A DNA stretch of 64,000 bases from an uncultured Candidatus Saccharibacteria bacterium (lineage in GTDB: Bacteria; Patescibacteriota; Minisyncoccia; Phycocordibacterales; JAKFXT01), in the NCBI GenBank assembly GCA_964385825.1, contig CAYLPX010000003.1:37559-101558 (forward strand), written 5' to 3'. The notes beneath the pieces are model-generated. The model was given only the letters and a program-made list of their open reading frames with translations. It searched no databases and was not told where the DNA came from. Below, piece after piece: positions 28,030 to 53,950 of this stretch (positions are counted from its first letter, which is position 1; each line of letters starts with the position of its first letter). The position numbers and the translations under genes are program-made.

Positions 28030-30216
28030 CTAAAGCTTCCCCCCAGCTCTAAGCGTATCTGCTGCTTTTTGATACTGAGCAGAAGTTGCAGGGTTAGTCT
28101 CAATTTTAGCCGCCGCCACGAACTCAACTATAGCCTGTACTGTATTTCCTGTTTGGTAATACGCAGAAGCTAAGCCTGCACGTGTACGCGCATCAGTTGG
28201 ATTCTGCTTAACCTTTTCCTGCCAAATATCAACCACCTCACTGAAATGCTTTGTTTGGAAATACGCCTGTGTAAGACGGTCGTCCACCGGTGTTGCTCCA
28301 TTTAGTCCACCTTTAAGTACACTCTTAGCCTGATCAACATCCCCTGCATAGATAAAGCCAATAGCATAAAGGGTTCTTGCTTCATCGTTTTCTGGTGCCA
28401 AATCAAGTGCTTGTTTTAGGTAGGTAAGCGCTTCATTAAACTTACCAGCATTTTCGTATGTTGAGGCGAGCTCATAGAGAATCATTTGTTTTTGCGGAGA
28501 AAGTTCAAGAGCCTTAGTTAATTGTGTAATAGCATTATTAGTGTCGCCATAAGAAGCAAGCATTGCCCCATAAAACAGACGGTGACGAGCGTCATTCGGT
28601 GCTTCTGTAACCATAATGTCATATTCTCGCTTAGCCAAATCAAAGTAAGCTTGCTTCTCTTTAATATCTACCGACGTTTGATACCGAAGGTTGTACACTG
28701 TCTGCATCAACTGTTCACGGATTTCTTGGTCGCCAAAACTATGATGCGCTAAAGCACTTTCAAAATACCCCTTGGCTTCAACTGGATTCTTTACATTACT
28801 TAATGCAGAAATGAGTTCAGTATTTGCTGCATAAGCCTTGCCATTAACTGCATAAATTGTAATCAATGCTAAAACTACAATGAGTGGGGCTATAACTCCA
28901 TTCACTCTACTTTCACTCGCTGTTAAGAATGAAGACATACTGCGAATCTTGGTACTAAATGGGCGCGCCACATCAAAGTGTAGATACGCGAGGAACAACG
29001 TAAAGAATAGATAACTTACTAAGTTATCAAACACGAAGATATTATGGAATAAGTACGCCAAGAAAAGCCCGGTAATTAGAGAACGCTCAACAAAGGTAAG
29101 GTCTCCATGCTTCCAGATTGCATATAGTCCAAGACCAAAAAGAGAAAGATACGAGAGGAGGCCGAAAATACCGCCAGCAATCAACCAATCTAGAAATACA
29201 TCATGAGTGCGGTCAAACCATGGCTCCTTGTTATACATTTCTGGAGCGTAATATTTATTGAAGACATAGTTAAAATTCTCCTGCCCCCATCCAAATAGTG
29301 GCTTTTCCTTAAATCCCTTAAGCGCCATAGGCCACACATACCCGCGAGACTGCGTTTGACTCTCACTCCAAGAAATAGTAGCGAAACGCTGCAGTACAGG
29401 ACTCTTTTGCACAAATGAAGAATCTTTAATAACAATAAACCCACCGATCAAGAGAAGTATTCCTGCTACCAGTCCGATTGAGAGTTTACGTAACCCTTTT
29501 GTTTCTTTACCAAAAAGCGCAATGAGGAGCGCAGTTGCTAGTAATCCTCCCAATAAACCGAGGATGGCTCCACGAGTTGCTGTGTGGTACAGAACAATTA
29601 ACTGCCCAACTACTAACAAGCCATATGTCCATTTCAGGATAAGATCAGTCTCACGACGAGCAATGAAAATGAGGGCAATGAAAATATGAAATACGAGGTA
29701 AATAGCTAAATAGGTTGCGTTTCCAAGGGTTCCATCAACACGTACTCCTCCTTGGTTAATAGTTAGTTTGCCAGCTAACTGCAAGAAACTATAAAAAACC
29801 ATTATAAAGCTTACAAACAATGAGGTTTGAAATAGTGCATTCCAAAGTTTGCGTGTCTGAAGCACACTCCCAAGAACTATAAAGTAAGCGAACAGGTGGA
29901 GCATGGTTATATATCCCTCCATGCGTTCAAAGTTACTCCAAAAACTCTTGTAGGGATTTTCAGCAAAAATAGTTGCGACCCCCATAACCACAAGGAAACC
30001 AAAGAAGGCACCAAAAATACTTGAGTACTTTGGCCGATAGTCACTATCTCGAAGTGCAAGTATTGCCCAGAGAGCAAAAATAATCTCAACCAGTACACGG
30101 AATGCAAAATTCTTTCCAGTAATGAACGGAAAGAACATATTACTGGCTACATAAAGCGGAATAAACGGGATGATAAAGACACCAGTTAATATAAGGGATC
30201 GCAGTGTGCTGTTCAT
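28030..30216 (-). CDS. O-antigen ligase/polymerase-like (Wzy_C) polytopic membrane protein fused to C-terminal TPR repeats
   Basis: About 12 TM helices with the Wzy_C-like segment (LYHTATRGAILGLLGGLL). About 300-aa C-terminal periplasmic TPR array (multiple A..Y..G/ L..A...P repeats). Confidence 0.6.
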   Translation of the reverse strand: MNSTLRSLILTGVFIIPFIPLYVASNMFFPFITGKNFAFRVLVEIIFALWAILALRDSDYRPKYSSIFGAFFGFLVVMGVATIFAENPYKSFWSNFERMEGYITMLHLFAYFIVLGSVLQTRKLWNALFQTSLFVSFIMVFYSFLQLAGKLTINQGGVRVDGTLGNATYLAIYLVFHIFIALIFIARRETDLILKWTYGLLVVGQLIVLYHTATRGAILGLLGGLLATALLIALFGKETKGLRKLSIGLVAGILLLIGGFIVIKDSSFVQKSPVLQRFATISWSESQTQSRGYVWPMALKGFKEKPLFGWGQENFNYVFNKYYAPEMYNKEPWFDRTHDVFLDWLIAGGIFGLLSYLSLFGLGLYAIWKHGDLTFVERSLITGLFLAYLFHNIFVFDNLVSYLFFTLFLAYLHFDVARPFSTKIRSMSSFLTASESRVNGVIAPLIVVLALITIYAVNGKAYAANTELISALSNVKNPVEAKGYFESALAHHSFGDQEIREQLMQTVYNLRYQTSVDIKEKQAYFDLAKREYDIMVTEAPNDARHRLFYGAMLASYGDTNNAITQLTKALELSPQKQMILYELASTYENAGKFNEALTYLKQALDLAPENDEARTLYAIGFIYAGDVDQAKSVLKGGLNGATPVDDRLTQAYFQTKHFSEVVDIWQEKVKQNPTDARTRAGLASAYYQTGNTVQAIVEFVAAAKIETNPATSAQYQKAADTLRAGGKL

Positions 30217-30320
30217 AGCAAAAAATGGTTAAAAAACGGTTGTTTCTGTGGGCACACTATAGCATTCTCCCCCCATGCCTAGCAAAGTAACCTACTCTCC
30301 CGTACTATAGTTATATTCCT

Positions 30321-31568
30321 ATGACTTCAAAACAGTGGTTTACTAGCCTCCTGCGCAAAAGTGAGTCTATATTCAAAACCGACATGGTATACGCCACTTC
30401 AGGTGGCTTTTGGCTTACGTTTGGGCAAATTTTTACCAACGTTTTCTCCCTCGCTCTTTCGATTGCCTTTGCAAACCTTATTTCAAAAGAAGACTACGGA
30501 ACCTATCGCTACATCCTTTCTGTTGCTGGGATTATTGGCTCCTTCTCCTTAAGTGGCCTTTCAACGGCAGTAACACGGGCTGCTGCCAAAGGTGTACATG
30601 GCGGCTTAAAACAAGCTTTCATAGCCAATATGAAATATGGCTTTATCCTCTCCCTCGCCATGTTTATGGGGGCCCTCTACTACTACCTACAGGGCAATAT
30701 TACATTAGCGCTCGGATTGCTGTTTGCAGGAACACTCTCACCACTTGCTGATAGCGGCGAATTGTTCAATGCATTTTTAAATGGAACTAAGGAATTTAAA
30801 AAGGGAGCCTTCTATAGGATTGTTAGAGCTTTAACCAACTCTTCGCTTTTAATCGCAACTATTTTTATTTTTCCGAACCCGATTGCTCTTAGTTTTGTTT
30901 ATTTTGCTGGCAACGCTGGCACAGCTTACCTTCTCTATCGTTATACCTTAAAACACAGTGTCCACAACAACACCCAGGATCCAGACATGCGCCAAGTGGG
31001 TATCCATGTGAGTATCACCAACGCCCTTGCTGCCTTTGTTGATCAAATCGACGAAATCCTTGTCTTCCATTACTTAGGTGCCGCCCAACTCGCTATCTAT
31101 ACCTACGCCCTTATTTTTCCAAACACCATTTTAGGATTTGTAAAAAATATTAGCATTCTTGCCGTTCCAAAATTCGTGAAGATTAGTCTTGCTGAAGGAA
31201 GACGACATGTAAGAGAAAAGCAACTATCCCTTTTCCTCCTTAGTGCCCCAATAGCTATAGCCTACATTGTCCTAGCGCCACTATTCTTTCATACTTTTTT
31301 TCCAAAGTACGAAGCTTCAATTTTATATTCCCAAGTGTTCGCTTTAAATATTTTTATAACCGGGGTACTTATTACATCATTTTTGGACGCGCATAAAGCG
31401 ATACACGCTCGCTACTGGCTCATACTGTATTCAAATGCTTTTAAGTTAGTAGCCGTCTTTTTAGGAATATATTTCTACGGCATCTGGGGAGCAATAGCTG
31501 CGCGCATACTAGCCAAATACCTCGGAGTGGTGCTTGGATACAGAGCGATCAAGCTTGTTTCATCCTAG
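30321..31568 (+). CDS. Polysaccharide flippase (Wzx / MOP superfamily)
   Basis: 415 aa, about 12 TM helices. Sits in a polysaccharide locus, divergent from the ligase gene. Confidence 0.6.
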   Translation: MTSKQWFTSLLRKSESIFKTDMVYATSGGFWLTFGQIFTNVFSLALSIAFANLISKEDYGTYRYILSVAGIIGSFSLSGLSTAVTRAAAKGVHGGLKQAFIANMKYGFILSLAMFMGALYYYLQGNITLALGLLFAGTLSPLADSGELFNAFLNGTKEFKKGAFYRIVRALTNSSLLIATIFIFPNPIALSFVYFAGNAGTAYLLYRYTLKHSVHNNTQDPDMRQVGIHVSITNALAAFVDQIDEILVFHYLGAAQLAIYTYALIFPNTILGFVKNISILAVPKFVKISLAEGRRHVREKQLSLFLLSAPIAIAYIVLAPLFFHTFFPKYEASILYSQVFALNIFITGVLITSFLDAHKAIHARYWLILYSNAFKLVAVFLGIYFYGIWGAIAARILAKYLGVVLGYRAIKLVSS

Positions 31569-31641
31569 TCTTTGAATATTACGTGTAAGAAAAGAGATTA
31601 GTCTTATAACTACAGACTCTTAATACTTGAGACGGAGTTTT

Positions 31642-32445
31642 TTACTTCTTCACTGCAACACAGGCATAACCCAAACTAAAGTTTTTTTGCCAATCAAGTT
31701 TATCGAGATAAAAACAGAGAAATGGGATGTAGTACCCAAGGATTAACTGGAACACTATATAAAAAGGAATAAGCACGAAGGAAAGCGGTGTATAACGGAA
31801 CTTCGGCTTAAAATGTATTCCCCTTTTAAATCCAGTGAAAGCATGTTGATAGAACAAATATGAAGGAAGGAGCGAGCTAATTTTACCAAGCACCCAGAAT
31901 ACCCCACCCCGCGGACTTATGCTCTCAACAGTGAGTCCCGCATGTTCAAAAAGTGAACGCAATCCATACGGAGTAAAAAAGAAAAAATTGTACGGCGCGC
32001 CATGCACATGTGAAATTTGTGGAGTAGTGAGATACAAAGTCCCCCCCACCTTCAACACTCGAGCCATTTCACTCACCACTTTCTGTGGGAACTCCACATG
32101 TTCAAGCACCTGTGTATTTACAATGACATCGTATTGATTATCAGGAAGCGGGATATCATCCAAGCTACAGGTAAAAGTGTGCTTTCCCTTACTTTCACTG
32201 TCAAAAATATCTTCGAAATCTGTCGACTCATAGCGTGTAAAATCAAGCGCATGCTTATAGCGAAACGATCCAGCACCAGCATCAAGAAGACGGTCACTTT
32301 TCTTAAGGCGTGGCACCAAATCATTAAATACAAATTGATCAATACCAAACCGTTCCGGGTCTGCCCTGTCCTTTACAAAGCGTGGAGTAATAAGGTCCGG
32401 TAAGCGAATAAGAAACTCGTATCCTTTCAGTAAAAAGTTATGCAT
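31642..32445 (-). CDS. Class I SAM-dependent methyltransferase
   Basis: Motif I LLDAGAGS and post-I acidic residue. VLEHVEFP...LKVGGTLYL as in Methyltransf_11. Start set at Met 32445, overlapping the upstream stop (ATGCATAA). Confidence 0.6.
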   Translation of the reverse strand: MHNFLLKGYEFLIRLPDLITPRFVKDRADPERFGIDQFVFNDLVPRLKKSDRLLDAGAGSFRYKHALDFTRYESTDFEDIFDSESKGKHTFTCSLDDIPLPDNQYDVIVNTQVLEHVEFPQKVVSEMARVLKVGGTLYLTTPQISHVHGAPYNFFFFTPYGLRSLFEHAGLTVESISPRGGVFWVLGKISSLLPSYLFYQHAFTGFKRGIHFKPKFRYTPLSFVLIPFYIVFQLILGYYIPFLCFYLDKLDWQKNFSLGYACVAVKK

Positions 32446-33277
32446 GCGGTTCTTTAAAATGAGTATTAATAAATGATCGGATACGGCGTTTCCAAATACT
32501 CTCCTGCACACTCTCCAAATCAAAAAGAGGTTCTTTCATTTCCCCAATAAGATTCACAAAATAGCGAGGGATGGAGGTTACTTCACGCGGGGTTACACCA
32601 TGAACTGAATCAAGATGGTTTACAAACAATACAAAAACATTCCGTTTGTAAGGCACTGTTTCAACTACTTCTACATACCTATCGCTTATGCCCTGACCAA
32701 AAAATAACCTATTCTTTTTATCCTTATAACGAAATACTTGCAAGTTTCCTCCCACTGTTTCATCCCCCTCGGGACGTAAATAAAAAAGAGCTCCGTAAAG
32801 TTTCTTTGGATCATCAACATGAGCCTCGCGTACACTTGAGGATTTCTTTACAACTGGTGTATTGATAGAGATATGCGCATCAAGAAGTATTGTTTTGGTA
32901 TCAAAGGTATCCAAATACCGGTGTCCCACCTTCCATTCCTCTAACTTTCCAAACTTATTCTGAAGATCGGGATACAGTTTTTCAATTGAAGGTTTAAAAA
33001 GTGACACAAACTGTTGCCAAAATTCCGGGCTCGCCTGCTTCTCTATAAAAGATTTCCAAAGTGGTGAGACACCACCCTGCTTTGCAATATCGGCCACCGT
33101 GTAATCAAAACGTTTATTGTTTCCAAGGGGTTGATGATGGGTGAGCGTTTCAACTGACGGCATCTCACGTACTAACTGATCACAAAACTCGGGAGAGACT
33201 GCATCAGTAATAACTATATACGGATATGGATCAGTGCGTATATCTGTAACTTTCGCTTTTGCCAATAATGTTTCCAT
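32438..33277 (-). CDS. Putative Fe(II)/2-oxoglutarate-dependent oxygenase
   Basis: HxD (AHVDDP) ... distal His (SVHGV) ... Arg-x-Ser-like (REVTSIPR) spacing typical of the 2OG-Fe(II) oxygenase fold. Confidence 0.4.
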   Translation of the reverse strand: METLLAKAKVTDIRTDPYPYIVITDAVSPEFCDQLVREMPSVETLTHHQPLGNNKRFDYTVADIAKQGGVSPLWKSFIEKQASPEFWQQFVSLFKPSIEKLYPDLQNKFGKLEEWKVGHRYLDTFDTKTILLDAHISINTPVVKKSSSVREAHVDDPKKLYGALFYLRPEGDETVGGNLQVFRYKDKKNRLFFGQGISDRYVEVVETVPYKRNVFVLFVNHLDSVHGVTPREVTSIPRYFVNLIGEMKEPLFDLESVQESIWKRRIRSFINTHFKEPHA

Positions 33278-33373: not shown

Positions 33374-34855
33374 CTACGCTTTAAAAAGGCCTTCTGTTTC
33401 GCCTATGGTAGTTAACGCTTGTAATAAACTTTTTGCTTCAAGAGGTAACAGTCTATTCCTGTGTTTCTCTAGCTCTTCCTTTGGAGTATTACTTATTTCT
33501 ATAAGAGTACTGCAGGAAATATCTGCAGTTACTAGTGTTGCCAAATCATTTTTATACATACCCTCCCCATAATCAGAACTAGTTTTTATTATGGCAACTG
33601 GTAAACCCTTAAGTACTGCGTCATAAAGAAAGGTGGAATAAACTCCACAAACCACATCCGCCTTCAAAAATGCCTCCTTAGTATTGGAAAGTACTCTAAA
33701 ACGTGGGTGTGAGAAATTGTGTAGATCATATTCACGTAGCTGTACTATGTCTTCCATATCAGCTCGTGTTTTAAACATAACTGAAACAGTGGGGCACTCC
33801 AGCACATGCAAAATCCACGCAGTCACTTCCCCCTTAGGAGCATCTGTCTCATAAGGAATAAGTACCTGTACCTGATCACTCTTTTCTTTAACTATTAAAG
33901 CATTATCCTGCAGAACTTCTTTGTAACCAGAAACCATAACAGACTCTTCTTTAAATAGACTATCAAGACGCGCCAATTCTTCCTTCCAGTACTCTGACCA
34001 AACTAGAGCCCTAAAAGGAGTAATACTTTTACCTTCAAATATCGGCTGCTTTAAAAAACCTCGTTGATACTTGGTAATATGTCCATGCTGAAGGCTGTAG
34101 TAGTGTATATCGAGCTCTTTCGCACTAAGCATTAGTTCGTGATAATACCGATACTCATCGATTGCAAAAACAACTTTAGTGCGTAAAACTTTTAAAACCA
34201 ATGTGAGTAAAGCAACTTTTCTCGGAAAAAAAGAAACTCTTTGCAACATACGGCGTACGCAATGCTTTGCAAATTCTCTCTCAAATGGTTCAAAACTTGA
34301 GAAATCAATAGTCGCCAAATCTCTAACTTTAGGGGTTACCCCGAGTACTGGCCCAAACAAAAAAAGTAAACTATCAATAGACTCAAGGAACAAACCAACT
34401 CGACCGCGAGTAAATAGTCGCCCGAATATCCCAAGTTGAGGAGTAGTATGAAATAGCTCCACATAGGGAACCTTCTTTGTAAAAAGAAATTCATAAAGCC
34501 CTTCAAGGCGAAAATCATTCTGATAAGTACTACTACTTATTCTATCCATTGAATAAACAAGTGTTCGTTTATTAGTGAGCCTTGCATACGAAAGACTAAG
34601 TGGTAGGTAGAGAACCATACACACTCGGACAATGAGAATTTTAATACCAATGATCAATGAATCCTGCTTTGTCGTAAAGGTTTTAGTTTTACTAAATTTT
34701 TTTACATCCTCAAAAATCATTTGCTCACAAACCTCAGCAAGATTGTAGCCACCATAAAAATATGCATTGGAAAGTGGTTTTGCATTGACGGTGAGTTTGT
34801 GGAGACGTTCCATGAACTCTACGGCATAGGGATAATCAATGTACACTTCTTTCAT
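33374..34855 (-). CDS. Putative CDP-glycerol glycerophosphotransferase-like (TagF/TagB family) polyol-phosphate/capsule transferase
   Basis: C-terminal region resembles the TagF core (QVLIPYETDAP; ADVVCGVYSTFLYDAVLKGLPVAII...DYGEGMY vs ILITDYSSVFFDFALLNKPIIFY...EEYRGFY). Start placed at Met 34855. Confidence 0.4.
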   Translation of the reverse strand: MKEVYIDYPYAVEFMERLHKLTVNAKPLSNAYFYGGYNLAEVCEQMIFEDVKKFSKTKTFTTKQDSLIIGIKILIVRVCMVLYLPLSLSYARLTNKRTLVYSMDRISSSTYQNDFRLEGLYEFLFTKKVPYVELFHTTPQLGIFGRLFTRGRVGLFLESIDSLLFLFGPVLGVTPKVRDLATIDFSSFEPFEREFAKHCVRRMLQRVSFFPRKVALLTLVLKVLRTKVVFAIDEYRYYHELMLSAKELDIHYYSLQHGHITKYQRGFLKQPIFEGKSITPFRALVWSEYWKEELARLDSLFKEESVMVSGYKEVLQDNALIVKEKSDQVQVLIPYETDAPKGEVTAWILHVLECPTVSVMFKTRADMEDIVQLREYDLHNFSHPRFRVLSNTKEAFLKADVVCGVYSTFLYDAVLKGLPVAIIKTSSDYGEGMYKNDLATLVTADISCSTLIEISNTPKEELEKHRNRLLPLEAKSLLQALTTIGETEGLFKA

Positions 34856-34868
34856 AGTAGGAATACTT

Positions 34869-35903
34869 TTAAAGAACCGAAGGAATAATATGATGCATAT
34901 GAATAACCCCAATAAGTTCCCCCTTAGGAGTAGTTACAAAAAGACTCATCACTTTTTTATCACGCTCCATTTCAGCTAGTGCCTCCTTTAATGTCGCATC
35001 CTTGCTGATTACCTTTGGTTGTTTGGTCATTATGGTGTTAATACTGCGCACAGTTAAATCCGCACCCTCTATAACTGCTCGACGAACATCTCCATCGGTA
35101 AGTACTCCTAAAAGCTTGTTGGTCTTTGATACTACAGCCACTATTCCCTGCTTCTTTTGTGAAAGCTCAAGAAGTGCTTCTTTACATGAGGCCTTTTCAT
35201 ACACCTTAGGAATATCTTCCCCCACCTTCATAACCGCTTCCACTTTTTCAAGCTGAAGGCCGAGAGATCCTGCTGGATGAAGTTTGGCAAAAGCCTTATG
35301 AGTAAAAGTTTTAGGATCAACGAGGGATGAAGCTAGCGCATCGGCAACAATAAGCGCGAGTGTAGTTGAAGCCATGGGAGCTAATTCATGGGTACTCCCC
35401 TCATTACTTATGGGAGTTAAAATTGCAATATCAGATATCTTGGCAAGCAAACTTGTTCCCCTCCCCGTCACCGCAATTATCTTAGCCTTTGTTTCTTTTT
35501 TAATATGGCGAAGGGTTTTTAAAAGTTCTACGGTTTCTCCAGAATAGGAAAAAGCAATAATTACATCATTATCAGCCACTACCCCTACATCCCCATGAAG
35601 GGCGTCAGTGGGGCTCAGTACGAAGGCTCGCTTTCCAAGGCTGGTCAGTGTTGCAGCACACTTCGCAGCAATAAAACCAGATTTCCCCACTCCCGTTGTA
35701 ATAACAAGTCCTGAACTACTCCCGATCAGTAAAGAAGCGGCCAAAATACTTTCTTTGCTTTCCCTATAAACCCTGGGTAGACTTTTCTCCGCCGCGTCAA
35801 AAACCCGCTTTATACGGGCTTTTGCGGAGTCCTTAGACCCCCCTTTCCTGGTCGTAGTAGGCATTATAGTTGGGTAAAAATTGCTTGTAAGTAATGCTAC
35901 CAC
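34869..35903 (-). CDS. kpsF: KpsF/GutQ-family sugar-phosphate isomerase (arabinose-5-phosphate isomerase-like; SIS + tandem CBS)
   Basis: SIS domain (GVGKSGFIAAKCAATLTSLG, SYSGET) followed by two CBS motifs. Confidence 0.75.
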   Translation of the reverse strand: MVALLTSNFYPTIMPTTTRKGGSKDSAKARIKRVFDAAEKSLPRVYRESKESILAASLLIGSSSGLVITTGVGKSGFIAAKCAATLTSLGKRAFVLSPTDALHGDVGVVADNDVIIAFSYSGETVELLKTLRHIKKETKAKIIAVTGRGTSLLAKISDIAILTPISNEGSTHELAPMASTTLALIVADALASSLVDPKTFTHKAFAKLHPAGSLGLQLEKVEAVMKVGEDIPKVYEKASCKEALLELSQKKQGIVAVVSKTNKLLGVLTDGDVRRAVIEGADLTVRSINTIMTKQPKVISKDATLKEALAEMERDKKVMSLFVTTPKGELIGVIHMHHIIPSVL

Positions 35904-45006: not shown

Positions 45007-45049
45007 GTGAGTCACAGTATAGTATGAAGAAGTAGATTTAAAAAGCCCC

Positions 45050-45739
45050 TTACATGCGAGTAACCAAAAAGTGAAAAGTGTCAAAATAGACCGTTCGTAA
45101 AATCTTATAGAACATAAGTAATATAGATCGTATAAGGAGATTTTTGTATTTTTCTTTAATTTTCTTTTCACGAATATCTATCGCCATAAAGCCTACCCCT
45201 TTAAATAAAGTTTTAGCCTCGTTATAGGTAGTGTAGTGCATTTCGCTCAATTTTTGTCTTCCCGCCTCTCCCCCCTCATTCTTTCCTCTCTCCAGGAACC
45301 TTATCACCATCTCGGACCATGCTCGAGGCATCCAGTTTATACCGTAGAGATGATAGTGAGGGTCTTTGAAACCAAAACGGTTTGGGATACTGACATACGC
45401 TTTCCCACCCTTAATGAGCACCCTATTGAGTTCCTCTAAAACCTTAACTGGATTCTCTACATGCTCCAGCACTTCCGATAGATTAGCAAAAGTAAATTCA
45501 CTGTTACCAAAAGGGAGTTTTTCTCCAACCCCTTCCGTAATCACAACCCGAACACCTGCCTCACTTGCCAGCCCCTGCGCTTCTTTGATATAGGCTGGGT
45601 TGAGCTCAAGTCCAACCCCATTCCCTCCTCGCTTAGTTAATGCAATGAGAAACCTTCCCCTCCCCGCCCCAAGATCAAGAACCTTATCAGTAAGTAAGGT
45701 AGGGACCAATCTCAATAATTCAGTAATGTGTTTATCCAT
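45050..45739 (-). CDS. Class I SAM-dependent methyltransferase
   Basis: VLDLGAGRGRF motif I and VLEHVENP. Confidence 0.7.
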   Translation of the reverse strand: MDKHITELLRLVPTLLTDKVLDLGAGRGRFLIALTKRGGNGVGLELNPAYIKEAQGLASEAGVRVVITEGVGEKLPFGNSEFTFANLSEVLEHVENPVKVLEELNRVLIKGGKAYVSIPNRFGFKDPHYHLYGINWMPRAWSEMVIRFLERGKNEGGEAGRQKLSEMHYTTYNEAKTLFKGVGFMAIDIREKKIKEKYKNLLIRSILLMFYKILRTVYFDTFHFLVTRM

Positions 45740-46839: not shown

Positions 46840-47454
46840 TTACTTATTCTTCAACACAAAGAAATGATGGTATTGATTTTCAAAAGGAACGTAATCTTTT
46901 ATAACAACAAAATATTTCTTTAATACCCATCGTATATACCAAGGCGCATATCCTTCTTTACCTACTTCCCAATAATGCTCCCCATCAAATTTGTGAATTT
47001 TGTAAAACCAAAGCTTCCAAGCAAACTTAATCTCTGGCACAAAAGGTATTTTAAATAAAAATTTCACCGGTGGTCCAAAATGAGGCAGACTCAAAATAAC
47101 AGCACCTTTTGAAACTCGCTTTAATTCTTTAAGAGCGGTTTCAAACTGTAAATACGGTAAATGCTCAAGAACTTCAAAAGCACAAACTGTATCAAAGGTA
47201 TTATCTTCAAACGGAAGAGCGAGTACTGAACCCACCACATCTGGATGTAAATCCTCCGCAACATCAAGTGTGGTGTATGCAATATTAGTATGTGTTTTGA
47301 TGTAATCCCTCACTACCCCCTCTCCAACTCCAATTTCAAGAATTGTTTGAGGCTCTGTGGTCAATAATTCTTTAATTTGATAATAGTAACTACTCCACCG
47401 AGCCAAATCGGTGTATTTCCCAAACGAGTAATGTTCTTTATTTACCTGTTTCAT
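46840..47454 (-). CDS. Class I SAM-dependent methyltransferase
   Basis: LEIGVGEG motif I and FEVLEHLP. Start set at Met 47454. The ORF-track start 47508 is an alternative. Confidence 0.55.
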   Translation of the reverse strand: MKQVNKEHYSFGKYTDLARWSSYYYQIKELLTTEPQTILEIGVGEGVVRDYIKTHTNIAYTTLDVAEDLHPDVVGSVLALPFEDNTFDTVCAFEVLEHLPYLQFETALKELKRVSKGAVILSLPHFGPPVKFLFKIPFVPEIKFAWKLWFYKIHKFDGEHYWEVGKEGYAPWYIRWVLKKYFVVIKDYVPFENQYHHFFVLKNK

Positions 47455-48478
47455 ATATAGCGATAATTTTCCCCACAAGAGTTTGATAAGCATAGGCTGG
47501 AACCACAAGACTGCGCAAGTCTATTCTCTCTTCCCTAGTCATACGTATAGCCGAAACTACCTTTTCTACCAACTCCCCACTGTCCCCTAAAGTAACCAGG
47601 GATTGCTCAGCAAATGGTCCAAAAAGGCCCTGTAACCCTTGATTTGAGGCTATAACAGGCACACCGCAAGATAGTGACTCAAGTACCGCCTTATCCAATC
47701 CACCCGTCGGAGTGAGGTTAAGCGTAATACTGGCTCTGTTGTAGTACTGAGGTAATTCACCCCCAGGAATGGCCCCCAAAAAATGAACCTTCTCTCCTAG
47801 CCCCAAGTCCTCAACCATAGCTAAAAGCTTTGCATAATACGGGTCACTTTTTTCCGGCACCTTACTAATGACAGTGAGTGTCACTCCTTGCCCCAACTGA
47901 TTTTCAATTTGAGGAATGGCTTCGATCATCAGCTCAATGTGTTTAATAGGAGCAATACGAGAAACTGTTACTATCTCAACTTTTTCTCTACTTACTTCCC
48001 GTGGACTGAATAAGTCTGTATTAATCCCATGCCCTACCACATGCACTTTTTTAGAGGGAATAGTAAAACTCTCCTTAACAGCGGTAAAAATATCGTGTGC
48101 AAAAAAATGCGCTATACGTAGCTTAAAATTCACCTGTTTGTGGGTATACCATAGGCCAATCCGCTTCCCAAAAAGTCTCCAGAGTAGTCCACCAAGCACT
48201 ACATATTCTGGGTTCATAAATACAAACACCTGATCGTACGAAAATATTTTTTTGAGAATAATTTTAAAAAATCTATAGAGGTAAGTTACTCTCCCCCTTC
48301 CCTCATTTTTACCAAGCGAAAAAACTTCTACATTTTTTGGCAATGTGTAACTTCCCGTACGAAGAGCAATAACCGTTACTGATTCATACCGCTTAGCAAA
48401 TTCGCGAACCCAATCAAGGAAAAAAACAAAGTGATCGTCCTTTTCATCTATTGCTTGAGTTGTAATAAGTAACTTCAT
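47438..48478 (-). CDS. Glycosyltransferase family 4
   Basis: GT4 C-terminal motif region (ESLSCGVPVIAS). Confidence 0.8.
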   Translation of the reverse strand: MKLLITTQAIDEKDDHFVFFLDWVREFAKRYESVTVIALRTGSYTLPKNVEVFSLGKNEGRGRVTYLYRFFKIILKKIFSYDQVFVFMNPEYVVLGGLLWRLFGKRIGLWYTHKQVNFKLRIAHFFAHDIFTAVKESFTIPSKKVHVVGHGINTDLFSPREVSREKVEIVTVSRIAPIKHIELMIEAIPQIENQLGQGVTLTVISKVPEKSDPYYAKLLAMVEDLGLGEKVHFLGAIPGGELPQYYNRASITLNLTPTGGLDKAVLESLSCGVPVIASNQGLQGLFGPFAEQSLVTLGDSGELVEKVVSAIRMTREERIDLRSLVVPAYAYQTLVGKIIAIYETGK

Positions 48479-48481
48479 ATA

Positions 48482-49618
48482 TTATTGTTCCGCTTTCTGC
48501 CAAAGATCCTTAATGCGAAGTAATCGTTCTGCTTTTGCACGCTCTACGTAGTGAGTTACTATTTCAAGCGCCTTAGTAGCCTTCGCCACACACTCCTCAT
48601 TGTGTAAAAGCATGTACGCCAGCTGTTGCTTAAAATCAGCCACATCATCTACCTTAGTGATGGTAATGGTATCTCCTGAGAAAACTTCTCCCGCAATTCC
48701 AACATCAGTAGTTAACACGGGGCATCCTGATATTGCCGCCTCAAGTATGGTTCTACCATACCCCTCATAATTTGAAGTATTGAGAAAAATGTCAGCACTC
48801 TCAAAATAAGGAGTAACCATATCCTGTCTACCCTCAAATACCACCTTCTCCTTGAGTCCTAAATTTTTAGCAAGTGTTACCAAATTACCCCTTTCTCTCC
48901 CAGCACCAACAATAACTAACCCTAAACCAGGGTTAGTAACAACTAGTTCCTTAAGCACATACAGTGCAAGAGGAATGTTCTTCTCACTTTCTAAGCGACT
49001 AACCATTAGCAGTATTGTTTTAAACTGCGGATATTTTTTTTGAAGAAAATCACTACGTACCAATCTCTCTTGTATTTGTAGATCAAGAGCTACTGGTATA
49101 ACCGCTATTTCTGTATTGAGTTTAAACTCTGGGCCTAATTTATAATCTCTTTCCAATTCTTTCTTAATACGCTCTGACACCACACGTACCACTTTTGCAG
49201 TAAGTAATACTCTATGAGCTATAGCAATTCTTACTCTGTTAAGTAAAGATTGTTTTTTAAAATAAGGGCTGCCAAGATCAGTATGTATCTGTACTTCAAA
49301 CCCAGCCCCAAGCTTGCGTGCTACAGATTCTGCAACAAGACCTATTTCAAAAGGATCCTGTGCTGTAACTACCGTAATACCTTTTCCCCTAAGTCTTTTG
49401 GCTATACGTAATACACCAAGTCCATAAAACAACTTGCTAAAAGAATTAGTTGGGTAAAGAAACATATTCCCAACTTTTTGAGTATTTCTGTTGCCCCCTT
49501 TCGTACAAACAATAATATGGAGTTCGTCAGTAAGTGAAGCGTAACTTTCCATACGTTTACACTCCTTACTTTGTAAGTCTAAAATATGAGCATCTGTTGA
49601 AATCATCAGTACCTTCAT
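48482..49618 (-). CDS. Glycosyltransferase family 4
   Basis: GT4 (EGYGRTILEAAISGCPVLTT). Confidence 0.8.
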   Translation of the reverse strand: MKVLMISTDAHILDLQSKECKRMESYASLTDELHIIVCTKGGNRNTQKVGNMFLYPTNSFSKLFYGLGVLRIAKRLRGKGITVVTAQDPFEIGLVAESVARKLGAGFEVQIHTDLGSPYFKKQSLLNRVRIAIAHRVLLTAKVVRVVSERIKKELERDYKLGPEFKLNTEIAVIPVALDLQIQERLVRSDFLQKKYPQFKTILLMVSRLESEKNIPLALYVLKELVVTNPGLGLVIVGAGRERGNLVTLAKNLGLKEKVVFEGRQDMVTPYFESADIFLNTSNYEGYGRTILEAAISGCPVLTTDVGIAGEVFSGDTITITKVDDVADFKQQLAYMLLHNEECVAKATKALEIVTHYVERAKAERLLRIKDLWQKAEQ

Positions 49619-50709
49619 ACTAGTGTTTTAAGTAGCTTCTCAACCATATGCTCTTCTTTAAATTGCTCAAGCTTCCTTTTACCCGCTACTCCAAACTGTG
49701 TCTGAAGCATAGTATCTCCACAAAGCTTTAGTAACGCCGCTTCTAACTCCTCCTTATTTTTGGTGGTAACTAACAAACCGTCCTTACCATCTTCTATAAG
49801 CTCAGGATTCCCTCCCGCAGTTGATGAGATAACCGGCGTACCGAGTGAGAGTGCTTCAAGGAGTACGTGTGAGAAACCTTCATAGGAACTTGCGAGTACA
49901 AAACAGTCAGCCGCTTTAATTCTTTTGTGTAATTCTTGCTGCGGAACTTTGCCAATAAAAGTTACTTTTTCCTCTATCCCAAGTTCTCGCGTGAGCTCCA
50001 TAAGTGCTCTTTTCTCTGGTCCTTCATCAATGATGAAAAGTTTTGCGTCTTTATATGTTTTACTTAATTCTGTAAAAGCCATAATGAGTGTCGGAAATTC
50101 TTTCCAGGGAACTAATCTACCAGCAGATACTATGGTTGGGTACGTATAGGCATATGTCTTTCGTAACTCTTCTTTAGTTTCTGTAATAATCGGAGCATTA
50201 AAGGCATTAAAAATGACTTCTATGCTCTCTGGTGCTATCCCCCAAGCAGTTACTACCCCTTTGAGATAGTTACTAGGAACGATTATTTTCTTAGCTTGAT
50301 TAGCTACAAGCTTTTCTACAAAACGGAACATTTCTACGGAAAGTGGATATTTCTTTTTATTTTTTACAAAGTCATCAAGACTTTCTTTTATCCCATACCG
50401 CGCCTGCCCCTGTTCCCACGCATAGTCCCCCACGATTTTAAGAAAGAAAGGTTTATCTTGTACCTTTGATGCAAGTAGAGCTGGGAGTCCCACAGAAACC
50501 GGATCTTGTGCATAAAGAAGATCTGCTCCACTTACAGCCTTCTTTAACCTTAAGAAAAAGACAAAGTGGCGTATAACCTTTGGATACTTAAGCACCTCAC
50601 CAAAAGAAACAACCTCTACCTTCATCCTATAGGAAGGCAGCCGACTTTCCAAAAGACGGCTGTAGGAAACTGGCCCACCGAAACTACCTGTAGCAATAAC
50701 TATCTTCAT
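49615..50709 (-). CDS. Glycosyltransferase family 4
   Basis: GT4 (EGFSHVLLEALSLGTPVISS). 4-nt overlap with the downstream gene. Confidence 0.8.
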   Translation of the reverse strand: MKIVIATGSFGGPVSYSRLLESRLPSYRMKVEVVSFGEVLKYPKVIRHFVFFLRLKKAVSGADLLYAQDPVSVGLPALLASKVQDKPFFLKIVGDYAWEQGQARYGIKESLDDFVKNKKKYPLSVEMFRFVEKLVANQAKKIIVPSNYLKGVVTAWGIAPESIEVIFNAFNAPIITETKEELRKTYAYTYPTIVSAGRLVPWKEFPTLIMAFTELSKTYKDAKLFIIDEGPEKRALMELTRELGIEEKVTFIGKVPQQELHKRIKAADCFVLASSYEGFSHVLLEALSLGTPVISSTAGGNPELIEDGKDGLLVTTKNKEELEAALLKLCGDTMLQTQFGVAGKRKLEQFKEEHMVEKLLKTLV

Positions 50710-50868
50710 TAATGGTAATTACTATAACAAAGGAAAGGGGCAAAAAGATACTCTCCACAGTAGCTTAAAAACTAGTCTAGTAATAAGGTTTATAGTAGGA
50801 TGTAAGCTGTTTATCTACCATTAATTACCGAGTAGATACTCTGACTAAAAACCACCCACTACCCATAT

Positions 50869-51696
50869 ATGACTATCTATAAACTAAAAATCTTATTAAA
50901 AGCATACCGAACCATTGGAAAGCTGGTTGTGACACGCATTACAGGAGGAGGAAGAACTGATGCCAATGTTAAAGCAGAATATGGACATCTCTGGGACCAA
51001 AGTGGAAAAGATGAAAAAAAATACATCGGTATTCCACAGCCATACTATAAATATAATCGCCTTGCACTGCTCCGTCGTATAGACAGAAAGAAATCTTTAA
51101 TAGAACATCTCAATGATACTATTGCGTCACTTCAACCAAAAACTATTCTTGAATTAGGTAGTGGAGCTGGTATGAATGTGCTTTGTCTCGCTCTCCTCAA
51201 CCCACATATTTCTTTCACTGGCCTTGAATACACTGCAGAAGGAATAGAGACTTCGAAGAAATTGATAGCTAACCCACCACTTAGAATACTTTCCTTTACC
51301 CTTGGCATGAGCGAAGAGGAAATCCTGTCACGACTTCCCAAGATACAACTAACTTTTATACAAGGAGATATGCGAGCACAGCCCTTTAAAGATGGATCAT
51401 TTGACTTTGTTTTTACCTATCTAGCCGTAGAACAAATAGCCAGAAATTGTAACGAGTGTTTTAGAGAAGTCTATCGAGTAATAAAACCTAAAAGTATGGG
51501 TCATGCCCTTTTCGTTGAAAGCTTCAAAGAAGCTCAAAAGACTTATACCCAACGACTTGTTCTGTGGGCGTCTGATTACTTCCGCTACAGCATACGCGTT
51601 GTAGAAAAAGAAAACCTCCGTGTAGTACGGTATCAAGAAATGGATTTCCAAAACCTCCAACTAGGCCTCGGATCCCTCCTTGTTGACCATCCTTAA
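50869..51696 (+). CDS. Class I SAM-dependent methyltransferase
   Basis: ILELGSGAGMN motif I, FVFTYLAVEQ. Confidence 0.65.
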   Translation: MTIYKLKILLKAYRTIGKLVVTRITGGGRTDANVKAEYGHLWDQSGKDEKKYIGIPQPYYKYNRLALLRRIDRKKSLIEHLNDTIASLQPKTILELGSGAGMNVLCLALLNPHISFTGLEYTAEGIETSKKLIANPPLRILSFTLGMSEEEILSRLPKIQLTFIQGDMRAQPFKDGSFDFVFTYLAVEQIARNCNECFREVYRVIKPKSMGHALFVESFKEAQKTYTQRLVLWASDYFRYSIRVVEKENLRVVRYQEMDFQNLQLGLGSLLVDHP

Positions 51697-52895
51697 ATAA
51701 CTGTATCGAACACTTCTTCTTTCATCTGCTTTGCAATACGATTCCAATCATATCGCTCCATAGCCAAGGTTTTAGCATTACTAATAATTTTTGCCCGTAA
51801 GGCTGTATCTTCTAAGCAATGTTTTACCTGGCGCGCTATCCCCTCTGGATCCTTCATATCTACAACATAGCCAGTTGGCATTTTGTCACGGTTTAATTCA
51901 CTGTCATATAGATAATCAGCAATCCCCCCTGCCTGAGTCGCGATAACTGGTATTTCCGCAACCATCGCTTCAACAAACGAAATGCCAAAACCCTCCGAAA
52001 GTGATGGTCGAATAAAAATATCACACGCCTTCAAATACTTTGGCATATCAGCATGACTTAGCTGCCCCATAAAACGAACCCTCTTTTCTACCCCCTCACT
52101 TTTTGCAAGCGCTCGAAGCATAGCCTCGTCCGGCCCCAGTCCATACACTAAAAAGTAAATATTCTCCGGCAGTAGTTTCATGGCCTTAATCACATCATCA
52201 GTTGCATTCTTCTTAACCAAACGCGATGTGGTAATCAGAAATACATCACCTTCCTTTTTCCCCAAAGAATCCTGTACGTCTTTAATTTCAGCAAAAGTAT
52301 ATTCCTGCGAAAAATGCTTAGCGTTTACTCCATTTGGCACGACCACAACTTCCCCCTTAAAGCCTAATCGCTTTATCTGCCTTGCCAAATGCGTTGCAGC
52401 AGCTACTGCACCATCTGCTTTACTAAAAAGCCAGGTGAACAATGGACCGAGTAATCTTGTTTTTCTCTCATAATGTTCAAAAGGATCTCCATCATCCGAT
52501 CGAACGATATACGGAATACCGGGAAAACATAGTTTAAAGAAAAGTGCGCTAAAAGAAGCGTAGCTCGTCATTGTAGACATCACTGCATCATAGGGTTTAC
52601 GACGATGAAGCACTACCGCATAGAGAAAGGCCCATGCGGGATATATATACTTGTTGAGAGAGAGTGGGAAATTTTTAGCGTCTGATACCGTTGCCCCGCG
52701 TTTTGTAAACCCAACACGAAACATGTCTATATGTCCGAACCGTTCAAACTTTGGCAACTCACTCCGCAAACGAAGTGTGATCATATCAAAATGATACTCC
52801 TCTTCACTAATACGATCCGTTACTTCCTTAACGGCAACTTCAGCCCCGCCAATAAAGGGGTGGTAGGTTAATGTGAAAAGTAGTACCCGCTTCAT
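51693..52895 (-). CDS. Glycosyltransferase family 4
   Basis: GT4 (EGFGISFVEAMVAEIPVIAT). Confidence 0.8.
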   Translation of the reverse strand: MKRVLLFTLTYHPFIGGAEVAVKEVTDRISEEEYHFDMITLRLRSELPKFERFGHIDMFRVGFTKRGATVSDAKNFPLSLNKYIYPAWAFLYAVVLHRRKPYDAVMSTMTSYASFSALFFKLCFPGIPYIVRSDDGDPFEHYERKTRLLGPLFTWLFSKADGAVAAATHLARQIKRLGFKGEVVVVPNGVNAKHFSQEYTFAEIKDVQDSLGKKEGDVFLITTSRLVKKNATDDVIKAMKLLPENIYFLVYGLGPDEAMLRALAKSEGVEKRVRFMGQLSHADMPKYLKACDIFIRPSLSEGFGISFVEAMVAEIPVIATQAGGIADYLYDSELNRDKMPTGYVVDMKDPEGIARQVKHCLEDTALRAKIISNAKTLAMERYDWNRIAKQMKEEVFDTVI

Positions 52896-52900
52896 GGGTT

Positions 52901-53950
52901 TTAAAGATCATTAAGTGCTCGCGCCTCTTGAACATGAGCGCGATATCCTTCAAATATTTTCTGCATAGCGACAGTCATGGTAACTTCAGGTTTCCACCCA
53001 AGTTCCTTCTCTGTATTATCTATTTTAGGAACTCGATTTTTAACATCCTGATATCCCTTACCATAAAAACCTTCAGGAGTTGTTACGATAATTTTTACTT
53101 TATGGGAATATTTTTTATACTCTTCGTATTTATTAGCGAGAGTGAGCATAGTTTCGGCCAATTTCTTAATTGACCAATTATTTTTAGGGTTTCCGATATT
53201 ATAGATTTTGCCCGATGCCACCCCACCCTTGTTTTCAATAATTTTCATAAGTGCAGAAACGCCATCATCAATATAGGTAAAGGCTCTTTTCTGCAGGCCG
53301 CCATCAACTAATTTAATATTTTCGCCACGTACTATCTGCCCTAAAAACTGAGTGATAACTCGTGAACCACCTTCTTTCTTTGTCGAAAGCCTATCAAGCC
53401 CAACTCCAATCCAGTTAAAAGGACGGAAGATAGTGAAATCAAGTCCACGCTCAATACCGTATGCCCAAATAACTCTATCTAGCATTTGCTTACTGCAAGA
53501 ATAAATCCAGCGCTGCTTGTCGATCGGACCAAGTACAAGTGAAGATTTGTATGGATCAAACTCTTTATCTGGTGACATACCATAGACCTCTGAGGTAGAT
53601 GGAAAAATAAGTCGCTTCTTATGCTTTGCCGTCATACGAACAATAGGCAGGTTCGCTTCAAAATCAAGCTCAAAAGTTCGCAGCGGCTCCTTCACATAAC
53701 TCATGGGAGTAGCAATAGCAACAAGCGGTAACACCACATCGCCCCATTTAATCTGCTTTTCTATCCAAGCGGCGCTTTTAGTGATATCCCCCTTTACAAA
53801 TTCAAACCTTTTATGTTTTAAAAATTCTTTGACACGATCGGACTCTAGATCCATACCCCGCACCTGCCAATCCGTGGTTTCTAGTATGCGCTTAGTAAGA
53901 TGATGCCCTATAAAGCCGTTTACTCCCAAAATTAATATCTTTTTAGCCAT
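52901..53950 (-). CDS. UDP-glucuronic acid decarboxylase, ArnA C-terminal-domain-like (UDP-4-keto-pentose / UDP-xylose-apiose synthase family)
   Basis: Rossmann [10 protein letters not shown] and near-identity to the ArnA decarboxylase core ([24 protein letters not shown] vs E. coli [24 protein letters not shown]). Confidence 0.7.
   Translation of the reverse strand: [349 protein letters not shown]

Follow-up and report, generated by a model that had tools for sequence, protein, structure and literature searches.

Gene clusters for surface polysaccharides of the Wzx/Wzy type, such as the O-antigen and capsule loci rfb of Salmonella and Escherichia coli and cps of Streptococcus pneumoniae, combine a Wzx flippase, a Wzy_C protein, a run of family 4 glycosyltransferases (GT4) and nucleotide-sugar-modifying and tailoring enzymes, and have conserved as well as variable parts. 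In this study, we analyzed a locus of this kind at positions 28030-53950 of a 64,000-nucleotide stretch of contig CAYLPX010000003.1 (the whole stretch is called the window in the following), together with U490, an unannotated protein of 493 amino acids encoded within it (33374-34855, minus strand) next to a KpsF-family sugar-phosphate isomerase. The best explanation of the whole is a Wzx/Wzy_C-type cluster for biosynthesis of a cell-surface glycan in a Paceibacteria/Parcubacteria bacterium of the candidate phyla radiation (CPR), with a conserved core, a variable arm and KpsF-U490 as a module for an acid like 3-deoxy-D-manno-oct-2-ulosonic acid (Kdo); for all these parts jointly, we estimate a probability of about 55%. 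That the stretch is a surface-glycan locus of some kind is, taken by itself, highly probable.

Compared with the Wzx/Wzy loci named above, the window is without a priming phosphoglycosyltransferase, Wzz or export genes, Wzx and Wzy_C belong to the conserved rather than the most variable part, Wzy_C is fused to a TPR region, methyltransferase density is unusually high, and the host belongs to the CPR. In regions 1 and 3 of the E. coli group 2 capsule (kps) locus, KpsF, KpsU, KpsC and KpsS provide a poly-Kdo linker on lipid. Common to both is a KpsF-family isomerase and, in relatives of our locus, a KdsB/KpsU-type synthetase beside a candidate transferase, and in three related loci U490 is followed by Capsule_synth (KpsS/C-type) genes; unlike in kps, U490 has no detectable homology to KpsS or KpsC, KpsMT is missing, export is apparently of the Wzx type and KdsB is not encoded in the window. 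Core (waa) loci of lipopolysaccharide (LPS) share the Kdo pathway, GT8-like and GT4 enzymes and a Wzy_C/WaaL-type protein, and in related loci also GT9 and RfaE-type heptose activation, whereas our locus has no lipid A genes and no match to WaaA (GT30), and no GT9 gene was found in the window. CPR bacteria including Paceibacteria are thought to lack an outer membrane and LPS and are assumed to be monoderm, and a literature search for Kdo-type glycans or for this locus in CPR/Patescibacteria returned nothing relevant.

Sequence searches and related loci

Gene assignments were based on a listing of open reading frames (ORFs) and on Pfam and NCBIfam scans of the locus ORFs; elsewhere in the window, Pfam scanning covered ORFs with a length of 110 amino acids or more. 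For two locus ORFs (44368-45171 and 46840-47508), shorter gene calls were taken over from the identical contig L001. For comparison, 33 genome loci with a U490 relative were fetched, plus several metagenomic loci (individual loci and contigs carry L numbers). Counts are given out of 35 loci, namely those on genome contigs and L007-L009; 4 extra metagenomic loci were also compared. ORFs of related loci were labelled by their similarity to window proteins, while the remaining ones were clustered and cluster representatives scanned with Pfam and NCBIfam.

All related loci come from metagenome-assembled genomes (MAGs) of Patescibacteria/CPR (Paceibacteria, Parcubacteria, Minisyncoccota), with SecA proteins 58-67% identical. 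L020, L026, L035, L038 and L042, as well as many third-party-annotation MAGs titled 'Gammaproteobacteria' or 'Saccharibacteria', carry CPR/Paceibacteria-type genes in the same synteny with SecA about 60% identical, so that these labels are probably wrong.

A conserved core and a variable arm

The locus encodes six GT4 glycosyltransferases, six class-I methyltransferases, two Fe(II)/2-oxoglutarate (Fe/2OG) oxygenases, AsnB, KpsF, a Wzx flippase, a Wzy_C-TPR protein, a GT8-like protein, a NUDIX hydrolase, a short-chain dehydrogenase/reductase (SDR), a UDP-glucose dehydrogenase-like (UGDH-like) protein and a UDP-4-keto-pentose/UDP-xylose synthase. The original prediction, made from the letters and ORFs of the window, had listed these genes except the GT8-like one, and the searches with family models reproduced its inventory almost gene for gene; the count of six GT4 enzymes and six S-adenosylmethionine-dependent methyltransferases of class I, in particular, was borne out by Pfam. 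GT4 or class-I methyltransferase genes account for 12 of 25 genes in the locus versus none of 36 ORFs in the remaining window (Fisher p = 3e-6). Gene spacing is tight, with stops and starts that overlap or nearly abut.

Comparison with the related loci divides the genes into two parts. The core, which in the window adjoins murB and secA, consists of the genes for the GT8-like protein, AsnB, KpsF, U490, an Fe/2OG oxygenase, a methyltransferase, Wzx and Wzy_C-TPR. In relatives, its order is GT8-like and, where present, AsnB on the minus strand, then KpsF or KdsB, where present, U490 and in many cases a MetW-like methyltransferase on the plus strand, and further on Wzx (minus), Wzy_C-TPR (plus), in some cases MurB, and SecA. 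Among the 35 loci, Wzx was found in 28, the MetW-like methyltransferase in 25, the GT8-like gene in 23 (48-58% identity), Wzy_C in 20 (38-48% identity, located beside Wzx), SecA in 18 and AsnB, within 10 kb of U490 and in most cases adjoining the GT8-like gene, in 16. The variable arm comprises the six GT4 genes, five further methyltransferases, a PhyH-family oxygenase, the truncated UGDH-like protein with an SDR resembling UDP-xylose synthase (UXS), and the ArnA-type UDP-4-keto-pentose/UDP-xylose synthase.

Parts of the arm recur elsewhere as units. One sub-module, made up of the truncated UGDH, the SDR, the first GT4 enzyme, a Methyltransf_24 protein and the PhyH oxygenase, is present in L025, L030, L033 and L040 with 44-58% identity; its methyltransferase (MT24_b) accompanies the first GT4 enzyme, PhyH, the short UGDH and the SDR in L025, L030 and L040, and its PhyH orthologues lie near U490 in all four loci (44-50% identity). 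Another one, with GT4 genes 5, 4 and 3, an AsnB-like gene and GT4 gene 2 in this order, recurs in L011, L029, L031 and L020. Further recurrent neighbors in related loci are three Fe/2OG oxygenase families, FkbM and TylF methyltransferases and GDP-mannose-dehydratase-like genes. The locus is thus modular but coherent and not a chance juxtaposition, because the three recurrent modules are related to glycans and recur together, beside the same core, in other CPR genomes.

Related loci also carry genes without a counterpart in the window. GT9 (heptosyltransferase-family) genes occur in 13 of them (e.g. L010, L014, L016, L019, L028, L044 and L046), and a RfaE-domain-II heptose-1-phosphate adenylyltransferase lies beside the core in 3 loci; together, they make up a gene set like that for an LPS inner core in CPR. 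In L017, L018 and L041, a radical SAM/SPASM protein of about 320 amino acids is inserted in the core between the GT8-like gene and KpsF/U490. Between Wzx and Wzy_C, L045 (11478-13981) and L046 (9024-11036) carry other decoration genes: one locus of this type has an ATP-sulfurylase/APS-kinase fusion and a sulfotransferase, implying a sulfated glycan, and another one a GFO_IDH_MocA/2-hydroxyacid-dehydrogenase fusion.

Kdo-type genes beside U490

At least one gene of Kdo-pathway type lies within 10 kb of U490 in 23 of the 35 loci; in about 21 of these, it is no more than about 3 kb upstream and has the same orientation. In 13-14 of the 35 loci, KpsF is immediately upstream. The linked cytidylyltransferase is KdsB by score (NF003952, 242 bits versus a cut-off of 193) and is adjacent to U490 or one gene off in L008, L009, L024, L026, L030, L036, L038, L045 and L046. 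L035 has kpsF, a DAHP_synth_1 gene and U490 contiguously, with kdsB about 0.9 kb further upstream, while L024 and L026 have the order DAHP_synth_1, kdsB, a KdsC-like HAD phosphatase and U490. The phosphatase scores 95 bits with TIGR01670 and 99 bits with the KDN-9-P phosphatase model.

In the window, the gene upstream of U490 (34869-35903, minus strand) encodes a KpsF/GutQ-family arabinose-5-phosphate isomerase with a SIS domain (76.5 bits) and two CBS domains (61.5 bits). It reaches 235.6 bits with TIGR00393 (cut-off 203.7), in accordance with its earlier identification, and stays below the equivalog cut-offs of KdsD (216 versus 505) and GutQ (208 versus 481). A pentose-phosphate cluster with a transketolase split into N- and C-terminal genes (8110-10474 and 10928-12080) and with Rpe and RpiB nearby is also encoded in the window and could supply ribulose-5-phosphate to KpsF.

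Read from the order of genes, the linked set would synthesize a CMP-activated 3-deoxy-2-ulosonic acid that is then used by a membrane-bound enzyme of GT-B fold, and the simplest reading of U490 is the transferase for this acid. The linkage to KpsF favors an eight-carbon acid derived from arabinose-5-phosphate. Because relatives of U490 are flanked by KpsF, KdsB, KdsC-like and DAHP/Kdo8P-synthase-family genes, KpsF-U490 is read here as a Kdo-like ulosonic-acid module and not as a polyol-phosphate system around a TagF-like enzyme; from this gene context, we consider the chances of such a module to be about even.

Several observations weigh against this reading. KpsF is the only member of the Kdo pathway in the window, since the Pfam scan detected no KdsA, KdsB or KdsC anywhere in the 64 kb, and tblastn searches with relatives of KdsA and KdsB were also negative. 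In 12 of the 35 loci, Kdo-type genes are missing up to a distance of 10 kb from U490. The linked synthase that condenses phosphoenolpyruvate (L024, L026, L035, L010, L020 and L037) scores as 3-deoxy-D-arabino-heptulosonate 7-phosphate (DAHP) synthase of type I-beta (412 bits) and reaches only 123 bits with the Kdo8P synthase model (cut-off 242); the acid could therefore be a different ulosonic acid instead of Kdo, or a DAHP synthase-type enzyme may have been recruited for arabinose-5-phosphate. U490 itself has no detectable homology to known Kdo transferases, neither by Pfam nor by profile comparison with Capsule_synth proteins, and its predicted fold, for which the best matches include UDP-N-acetylglucosamine (UDP-GlcNAc) 2-epimerases, would also allow a role other than that of a transferase. 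Finally, no priming transferase is encoded in the window, and an in-locus source of UDP-glucuronic acid (UDP-GlcA) is doubtful because the UGDH-like protein is without its C-terminal domain.

Sequence family and predicted fold of U490

U490 matched no Pfam family even at E <= 10, Glyphos_transf (PF04464) included, no NCBIfam model and no PDB sequence, the last of these whether the query was the protein alone or a profile of 32 sequences. A word-indexed search yielded 35 relatives, none with a Pfam domain. In an exhaustive profile search, the family comprised 401 clusters at 50% identity with E <= 1e-30 and 2,459 with E <= 1e-3; the best 150 matches were all members of the core family. Residues D114, R116, E133, D233, Q256-H257-G258, E336, K362, R364 and S407-T408 are invariant. 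A hydrophobic helix centered at about residue 84 has a mean Kyte-Doolittle value of 2.15, and this value exceeds 1.6 in 95% of 160 members; on account of this conserved helix, we take the protein to be associated with the membrane.

The AlphaFold (AF2) model of U490 (mean predicted local distance difference test (pLDDT) score 93.1, predicted template modeling (TM) score 0.91) has the two Rossmann domains of a GT-B fold. Foldseek searches against the PDB returned UDP-GlcNAc 2-epimerases including NeuC, GT1 antibiotic glycosyltransferases and MurG, with E values around 1e-9 and TM-scores of 0.40-0.47. With the known Kdo transferases (WaaA of GT30, KpsS/KpsC of GT107, WbbB of GT99), U490 thus shares a GT-B-type fold and, in relatives, the linkage to genes for CMP-Kdo, but not the membership in a sequence family, as the Pfam families of the known enzymes (Glycos_transf_N of GT30 WaaA and Capsule_synth of GT107) gave no match. 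Distant kinship with KpsS/KpsC was rejected after hhalign comparison of a 160-sequence U490 profile with the Capsule_synth genes of the three related loci gave a probability of 0.9%.

Alternative explanations

The original prediction had seen in U490 a TagF-like polyol-phosphate transferase overlapping KpsF. The overlap is an artefact of choosing the longest ORF and disappears with an internal ATG at position 34855. If U490 were a CDP-polyol phosphotransferase like TagF/TarF (Glyphos_transf) and KpsF supplied it with a pentose or pentitol phosphate, the glycan would carry polyol-phosphate decoration resembling teichoic acid. This would agree with the GT-B-like two-domain architecture and membrane association that U490 shares with TagF, with the pentose phosphate made by KpsF and with the cytidylyltransferase gene that precedes U490 in several relatives, as an enzyme of this kind would be required for a CDP-activated donor. 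The model is, however, equally compatible with any GT-B enzyme and offers nothing specific in favor of TagF, which has no entry among the best 50 Foldseek matches; in view of this and of the negative Pfam, NCBIfam and PDB searches (phmmer and profile), the TagF-like assignment was rejected. Moreover, the cytidylyltransferase scores above the cut-off as KdsB and not as TarI or TagD, and it is accompanied by a KdsC-type phosphatase and a DAHP/Kdo8P-family synthase. Genes for the synthesis of CDP-glycerol or CDP-ribitol (TagD, TarI, TarJ) are absent from the window, and no TarJ-type polyol-phosphate reductase turned up beside U490, although no search was aimed at TarJ. The predicted polyol-phosphate decoration is thus not supported, and we regard this explanation as improbable. 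Much the same low probability applies to U490 as a UDP-sugar 2-epimerase or hydrolase like NeuC/WecB that feeds a pathway for nonulosonic or other ulosonic acids. The top Foldseek matches point in this direction, as do a neighboring PEP-condensing synthase-family gene with a weak NeuB match, a CMP-sugar synthetase and the HAD enzyme resembling KDN-9-P phosphatase. Yet Epimerase_2 of Pfam does not match, GT1 enzymes and MurG fit the fold as well as the epimerases do at these TM-scores, a conserved membrane helix would be unusual in a soluble epimerase, a Kdo precursor is already supplied by KpsF, and PseF/NeuA-type models fit the cytidylyltransferase far less well than KdsB does.

On the level of the whole locus, the 26 kb could be a composite in which unrelated operons are neighbors only by chance. 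The three sub-modules do combine differently in other genomes, the NUDIX gene and a gene for a 117-amino-acid protein sit in the middle of the locus, and none of the related loci has a counterpart of the UDP-xylose synthase. Given that the recurrent modules stand beside the same core in L025, L030, L033, L040, L011 and L029, and given the close packing of the genes and the strong enrichment of GT4 and methyltransferase genes, we consider a composite very unlikely. A question of a different kind concerns only the last step, for which the Wzy_C-TPR protein could be an O-oligosaccharyltransferase of PglL/PilO type that loads pilins or other surface proteins with the flipped, lipid-linked oligosaccharide instead of polymerizing it; this would be compatible with the Kdo-like module. 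Wzy_C is a domain common to O-antigen ligases, Wzy polymerases and O-oligosaccharyltransferases, and the protein matches it at 73 bits. Its conservation next to a variable glycosyltransferase arm fits a relaxed glycan specificity better than a polymerase specific for one repeat unit, CPR are regarded as being without lipid A, and a pilin-like protein and an LTD/PKD surface protein are encoded at a distance of a few kb from the locus. On the other hand, no acceptor protein is encoded within the locus, the Wzy_C membrane domain has no sequence homologue in the PDB, and none of the sequence features examined separates ligase, polymerase and oligosaccharyltransferase. We hold transfer to protein to be possible, yet clearly less likely than not being the case.

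Proposed pathway

The family assignments, the division into core and arm and the presence of Kdo-type genes near U490 in related loci were observed directly, whereas the assignment of enzymes to steps is in all cases inferred from them. KpsF would convert ribulose-5-phosphate, for which Rpe, RpiB and transketolase are encoded upstream in the window, to arabinose-5-phosphate. From this, three enzymes that would have to be encoded elsewhere in the genome (KdsB, a KdsC-like phosphatase and a member of the DAHP/Kdo8P synthase family) would form a 3-deoxy-ulosonic acid activated with CMP, in the simplest case CMP-Kdo, and membrane-anchored U490 would transfer the acid to a membrane-bound acceptor. 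UDP-4-keto-pentose or UDP-xylose would be formed from UDP-GlcA by the ArnA-type decarboxylase and perhaps also by the SDR. At the cytoplasmic face, the GT4 and GT8-like enzymes would extend the chain, which may be O-methylated by the six methyltransferases, hydroxylated by the two Fe/2OG enzymes and amidated by AsnB at a carboxylate of a uronic or ulosonic acid. Wzx would then flip the lipid-linked unit, and Wzy_C-TPR would polymerize the product or ligate it to a final acceptor. Methylation, hydroxylation and amidation of the glycan, as earlier proposed, are reasonable to expect from these enzymes, while our confidence in individual tailoring assignments is low.

Wzx, Wzy_C and flanking surface genes

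The Wzy_C membrane protein with C-terminal TPR region (28030-30216, minus strand; 728 amino acids) scores 73 bits with PF04932 (cut-off 31.7) as well as with many TPR families, and has about 12 hydrophobic, putatively transmembrane segments followed by a soluble TPR tail. Next to it, the Wzx-type flippase of the Polysacc_synt family (30321-31568, plus strand) matches PF01943 with 45.8 bits (cut-off 28.2) and PF13440. Both belong to the core, and the earlier description of an O-antigen-ligase/TPR fusion and a flippase thus stands. Wzx, Wzy_C, several glycosyltransferases and nucleotide-sugar enzymes are found in one cluster, as in Wzx/Wzy systems, whereas an initiating phosphoglycosyltransferase, either Bac_transf or WecA-type (Glycos_transf_4), was not found by Pfam among the window ORFs of at least 110 amino acids; the same holds for an ABC exporter and an aminotransferase, in agreement with the original prediction. 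A priming transferase may be encoded elsewhere in the genome. Since Wzy_C is conserved while the glycosyltransferase arm varies, a role as ligase or oligosaccharyltransferase seems at least as plausible as that of a polymerase.

Directly beyond the other end of the locus (55184-59871), an LTD and PKD domain-containing surface protein, a VirD4/TraG-like coupling ATPase and a pilin-like (N_methyl) protein are encoded, which are candidates for surface or uptake machinery and possible targets of glycosylation. Two tandem small membrane proteins of the Phage_holin_4_2 family (19669-20367 and 20370-22629) lie beside VKOR, VTT-domain and DsbA-like genes.

Tailoring enzymes and glycosyltransferases

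The oxygenase 2OG_a (32438-33277, minus strand), directly downstream of U490, remains below the Pfam cut-off (2OG-FeII_Oxy_3, 24.1 versus 27 bits), but its family has the invariant residues H153, D155, H226 and R238, corresponding to the HxD...H plus R motif, and its AF2 model (pLDDT 94.7) has the fold of a 2OG oxygenase. Orthologues are present at the same position in L014, L031 and L043. The best Foldseek matches were PolD and PasI, followed by prolyl hydroxylases, with TM-scores of about 0.5. PolD and PasI are Fe/2OG enzymes whose substrate is the phosphate of an octosyl sugar acid with eight carbons, and this likeness at the level of the modeled fold is suggestive in a Kdo setting. A further enzyme to be considered is KdoO, the Fe/2OG-dependent Kdo 3-hydroxylase that forms D-glycero-D-talo-oct-2-ulosonic acid (Ko). 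The position of an Fe(II)/2OG dioxygenase gene beside a putative Kdo-handling enzyme and the presence of the HxD...H motif recall KdoO; neither locus oxygenase, however, matches PF11004 (Kdo_hydroxy) at E <= 10, and the nearest folds of 2OG_a are PolD and PasI, with KdoO outside the best 50 fold matches, so that 2OG_a was rejected as a KdoO. The second oxygenase belongs to the PhyH family (41402-42379, plus strand; PF05721, 29.3 bits versus a cut-off of 22). The two Fe/2OG oxygenases of the original prediction were thus both recovered.

The methyltransferases are distributed over core and arm. MT_a (31642-32523, minus strand; Methyltransf_11/23), with a likely true start near 32445, has a 64% identical orthologue at the same position in L014 and one of 268 amino acids in L043. 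MT24_b (39554-40276, minus strand) matches Methyltransf_24 (PF13578, 57.5 bits) only, while the product of 44368-45171 (minus strand; called gene 44368-45006, 212 amino acids) matches both TylF (37.3 bits) and Methyltransf_24 (58.4 bits); of the at least two enzymes of TylF/MycF type expected, this leaves a single clear one. The other three, MT11_c (45050-45739, minus strand; 66.9 bits), MT11_d (46840-47508, minus strand, called gene 46840-47454; 42.9 bits) and MT11_e (50869-51696, plus strand; 53.3 bits), belong to Methyltransf_11.

All six GT4 genes are on the minus strand. They match Glycos_transf_1 (GT4_1, 40206-41327, 122 bits; GT4_4, 48482-49618, 90.6 bits; GT4_5, 49615-50709, 139 bits; GT4_6, 51693-52895, 132.7 bits) or Glyco_trans_1_4 (GT4_2, 45732-46838, 81.8 bits; GT4_3, 47438-48478, 68.5 bits). 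The AsnB-type glutamine amidotransferase (35982-37772, plus strand), confirmed by Asn_synthase and GATase_7 domains and by TIGR01536 (296 bits versus 267), forms an operon, divergent from KpsF-U490, with the putative GT8-like glycosyltransferase (37769-38623, plus strand), which has a VIDPD motif and a Glyco_transf_8 score below the cut-off (20.6 bits) and is regarded as the best conserved partner within the core. Further inside lie a gene for a small membrane protein of 117 amino acids with one hydrophobic segment and no match in Pfam or NCBIfam (38743-39096, plus strand), whose membership in the locus is uncertain, and a NUDIX hydrolase gene (39152-39550, minus strand; PF00293, 51 bits). A second NUDIX gene was detected by the Pfam scan at 62507-62992, so that both hydrolases named in the original prediction are accounted for.

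Nucleotide-sugar enzymes

The bifunctional UDP-4-keto-pentose/UDP-xylose synthase (52901-53950, minus strand), a UDP-GlcA decarboxylase of the type of the ArnA C-terminal domain, is covered by NF008872 over residues 3-347 of 349 with 597.4 bits (cut-off 294), and matches PDB entry 3SLG with 533 bits and ArnA with about 380 bits. It is thus a full-length, high-scoring member of the group formed by the ArnA C-terminal domain, Ralstonia RsU4kpxs and Burkholderia PbgP3 (3SLG), and lies far closer to characterized proteins than any other protein of the locus. Its closest relatives found are proteobacterial (the NF008872 model and PDB chains of Burkholderia PbgP3 and E. coli ArnA), and horizontal acquisition appears possible. 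Unlike in the ArnA system, the locus has no ArnB aminotransferase, formyltransferase, ArnC or ArnT, and the product is therefore more likely UDP-xylose or another pentose for the glycan than 4-amino-4-deoxy-L-arabinose on lipid A. The predicted pentose branch derived from UDP-GlcA is thereby well supported.

The preceding step, from UDP-glucose to UDP-GlcA, is on weaker ground. The UGDH-like nucleotide-sugar 6-dehydrogenase (43373-44296, minus strand; 307 amino acids) has the N-terminal (UDPG_MGDP_dh_N) and central domains, with a GxGxxG NAD motif and the catalytic cysteine in 'GGHCLPKD', but is without the C-terminal domain of about 120 amino acids responsible for binding the nucleotide part of the sugar substrate; accordingly, it aligns with positions 2-297 of the 413 positions of TIGR03026 and reaches 113 bits versus a cut-off of 190. 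The UDP-glucose dehydrogenase of the original prediction is therefore a truncated protein, and of the route to UDP-4-keto-pentose or xylose proposed there the decarboxylase step is the solid part. The truncation is conserved, with orthologues of 307-322 amino acids in other CPR loci, in each case followed by the SDR. Hence, the gene is real, while its substrate is uncertain. The SDR gene starts at a distance of 2 bp from the stop of its UGDH-like neighbor. This extended SDR (42385-43371, minus strand; Epimerase, 163 bits), which corresponds to the further epimerase/dehydratase noted earlier, is an epimerase, dehydratase or decarboxylase resembling UXS, RmlB and GalE; it scores below all NCBIfam equivalog cut-offs and matches GalE, RmlB and UXS in the PDB with about 100-113 bits.

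Surroundings and population variants

Outside the locus, the window encodes housekeeping functions (RF1, L25, aldolase, split transketolase, Rpe, RpiB, GAPDH, GatB, Obg, VKOR/DsbA, SecA, MurB and Mur ligases). GC content is 0.39-0.41 inside the locus and 0.38-0.45 outside, and no clear foreign island was seen in the composition profile of the window. Scans of the window for tRNAs and Rfam families found nothing.

The exact UDP-xylose synthase protein is present on 15 metagenomic contigs, six of which were retrieved and are 99.9-100% identical to the window across the aligned stretches. The near-identical contig L002 from another sample has a T6-to-T7 homopolymer change at about 48318, which causes a frameshift in GT4_3, and 11 substitutions tightly clustered at 49202-49268 inside GT4_4. 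These differences might reflect glycan variation at strain level or of phase type, or might be sequencing errors.

Significance

The kind of system described here, a Wzx/Wzy glycan locus, is ordinary; the lineage is understudied and one enzyme family is unannotated. A large part of bacterial diversity belongs to the CPR/Patescibacteria, which live attached to host cells and whose envelope chemistry is almost uncharted. An envelope-glycan locus conserved in the lineage beside murB and secA, combined with a decoration arm that differs between strains, is what would be expected of a surface structure involved in interactions with hosts or phages.

As a speculation that we consider unlikely, Paceibacteria might build an LPS-like lipoglycan. 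Its core would contain a Kdo-like ulosonic acid that is put on a membrane lipid by U490, as the representative of a new family of membrane-anchored GT-B glycosyltransferases, and is extended by the GT8-like enzyme and, in some genomes, also by a GT9 enzyme; a variable, heavily methylated, pentose-containing chain resembling an O-antigen would be made by the GT4/methyltransferase arm, flipped by Wzx and ligated onto the core by a WaaL-like Wzy_C-TPR. The ulosonic acid itself might be a target of AsnB and the Fe/2OG enzymes, through amidation or a Ko-like hydroxylation.

If the Kdo reading fails, the locus is an ordinary, methyltransferase-rich polysaccharide cluster. If it is true, the so far unannotated enzyme family of at least 400 sequence clusters, with its proposed function of ulosonic-acid transferase, would count as a new family of glycosyltransferases and a candidate for CAZy, and Kdo-type sugars would be present in a lineage that is assumed to be without LPS.

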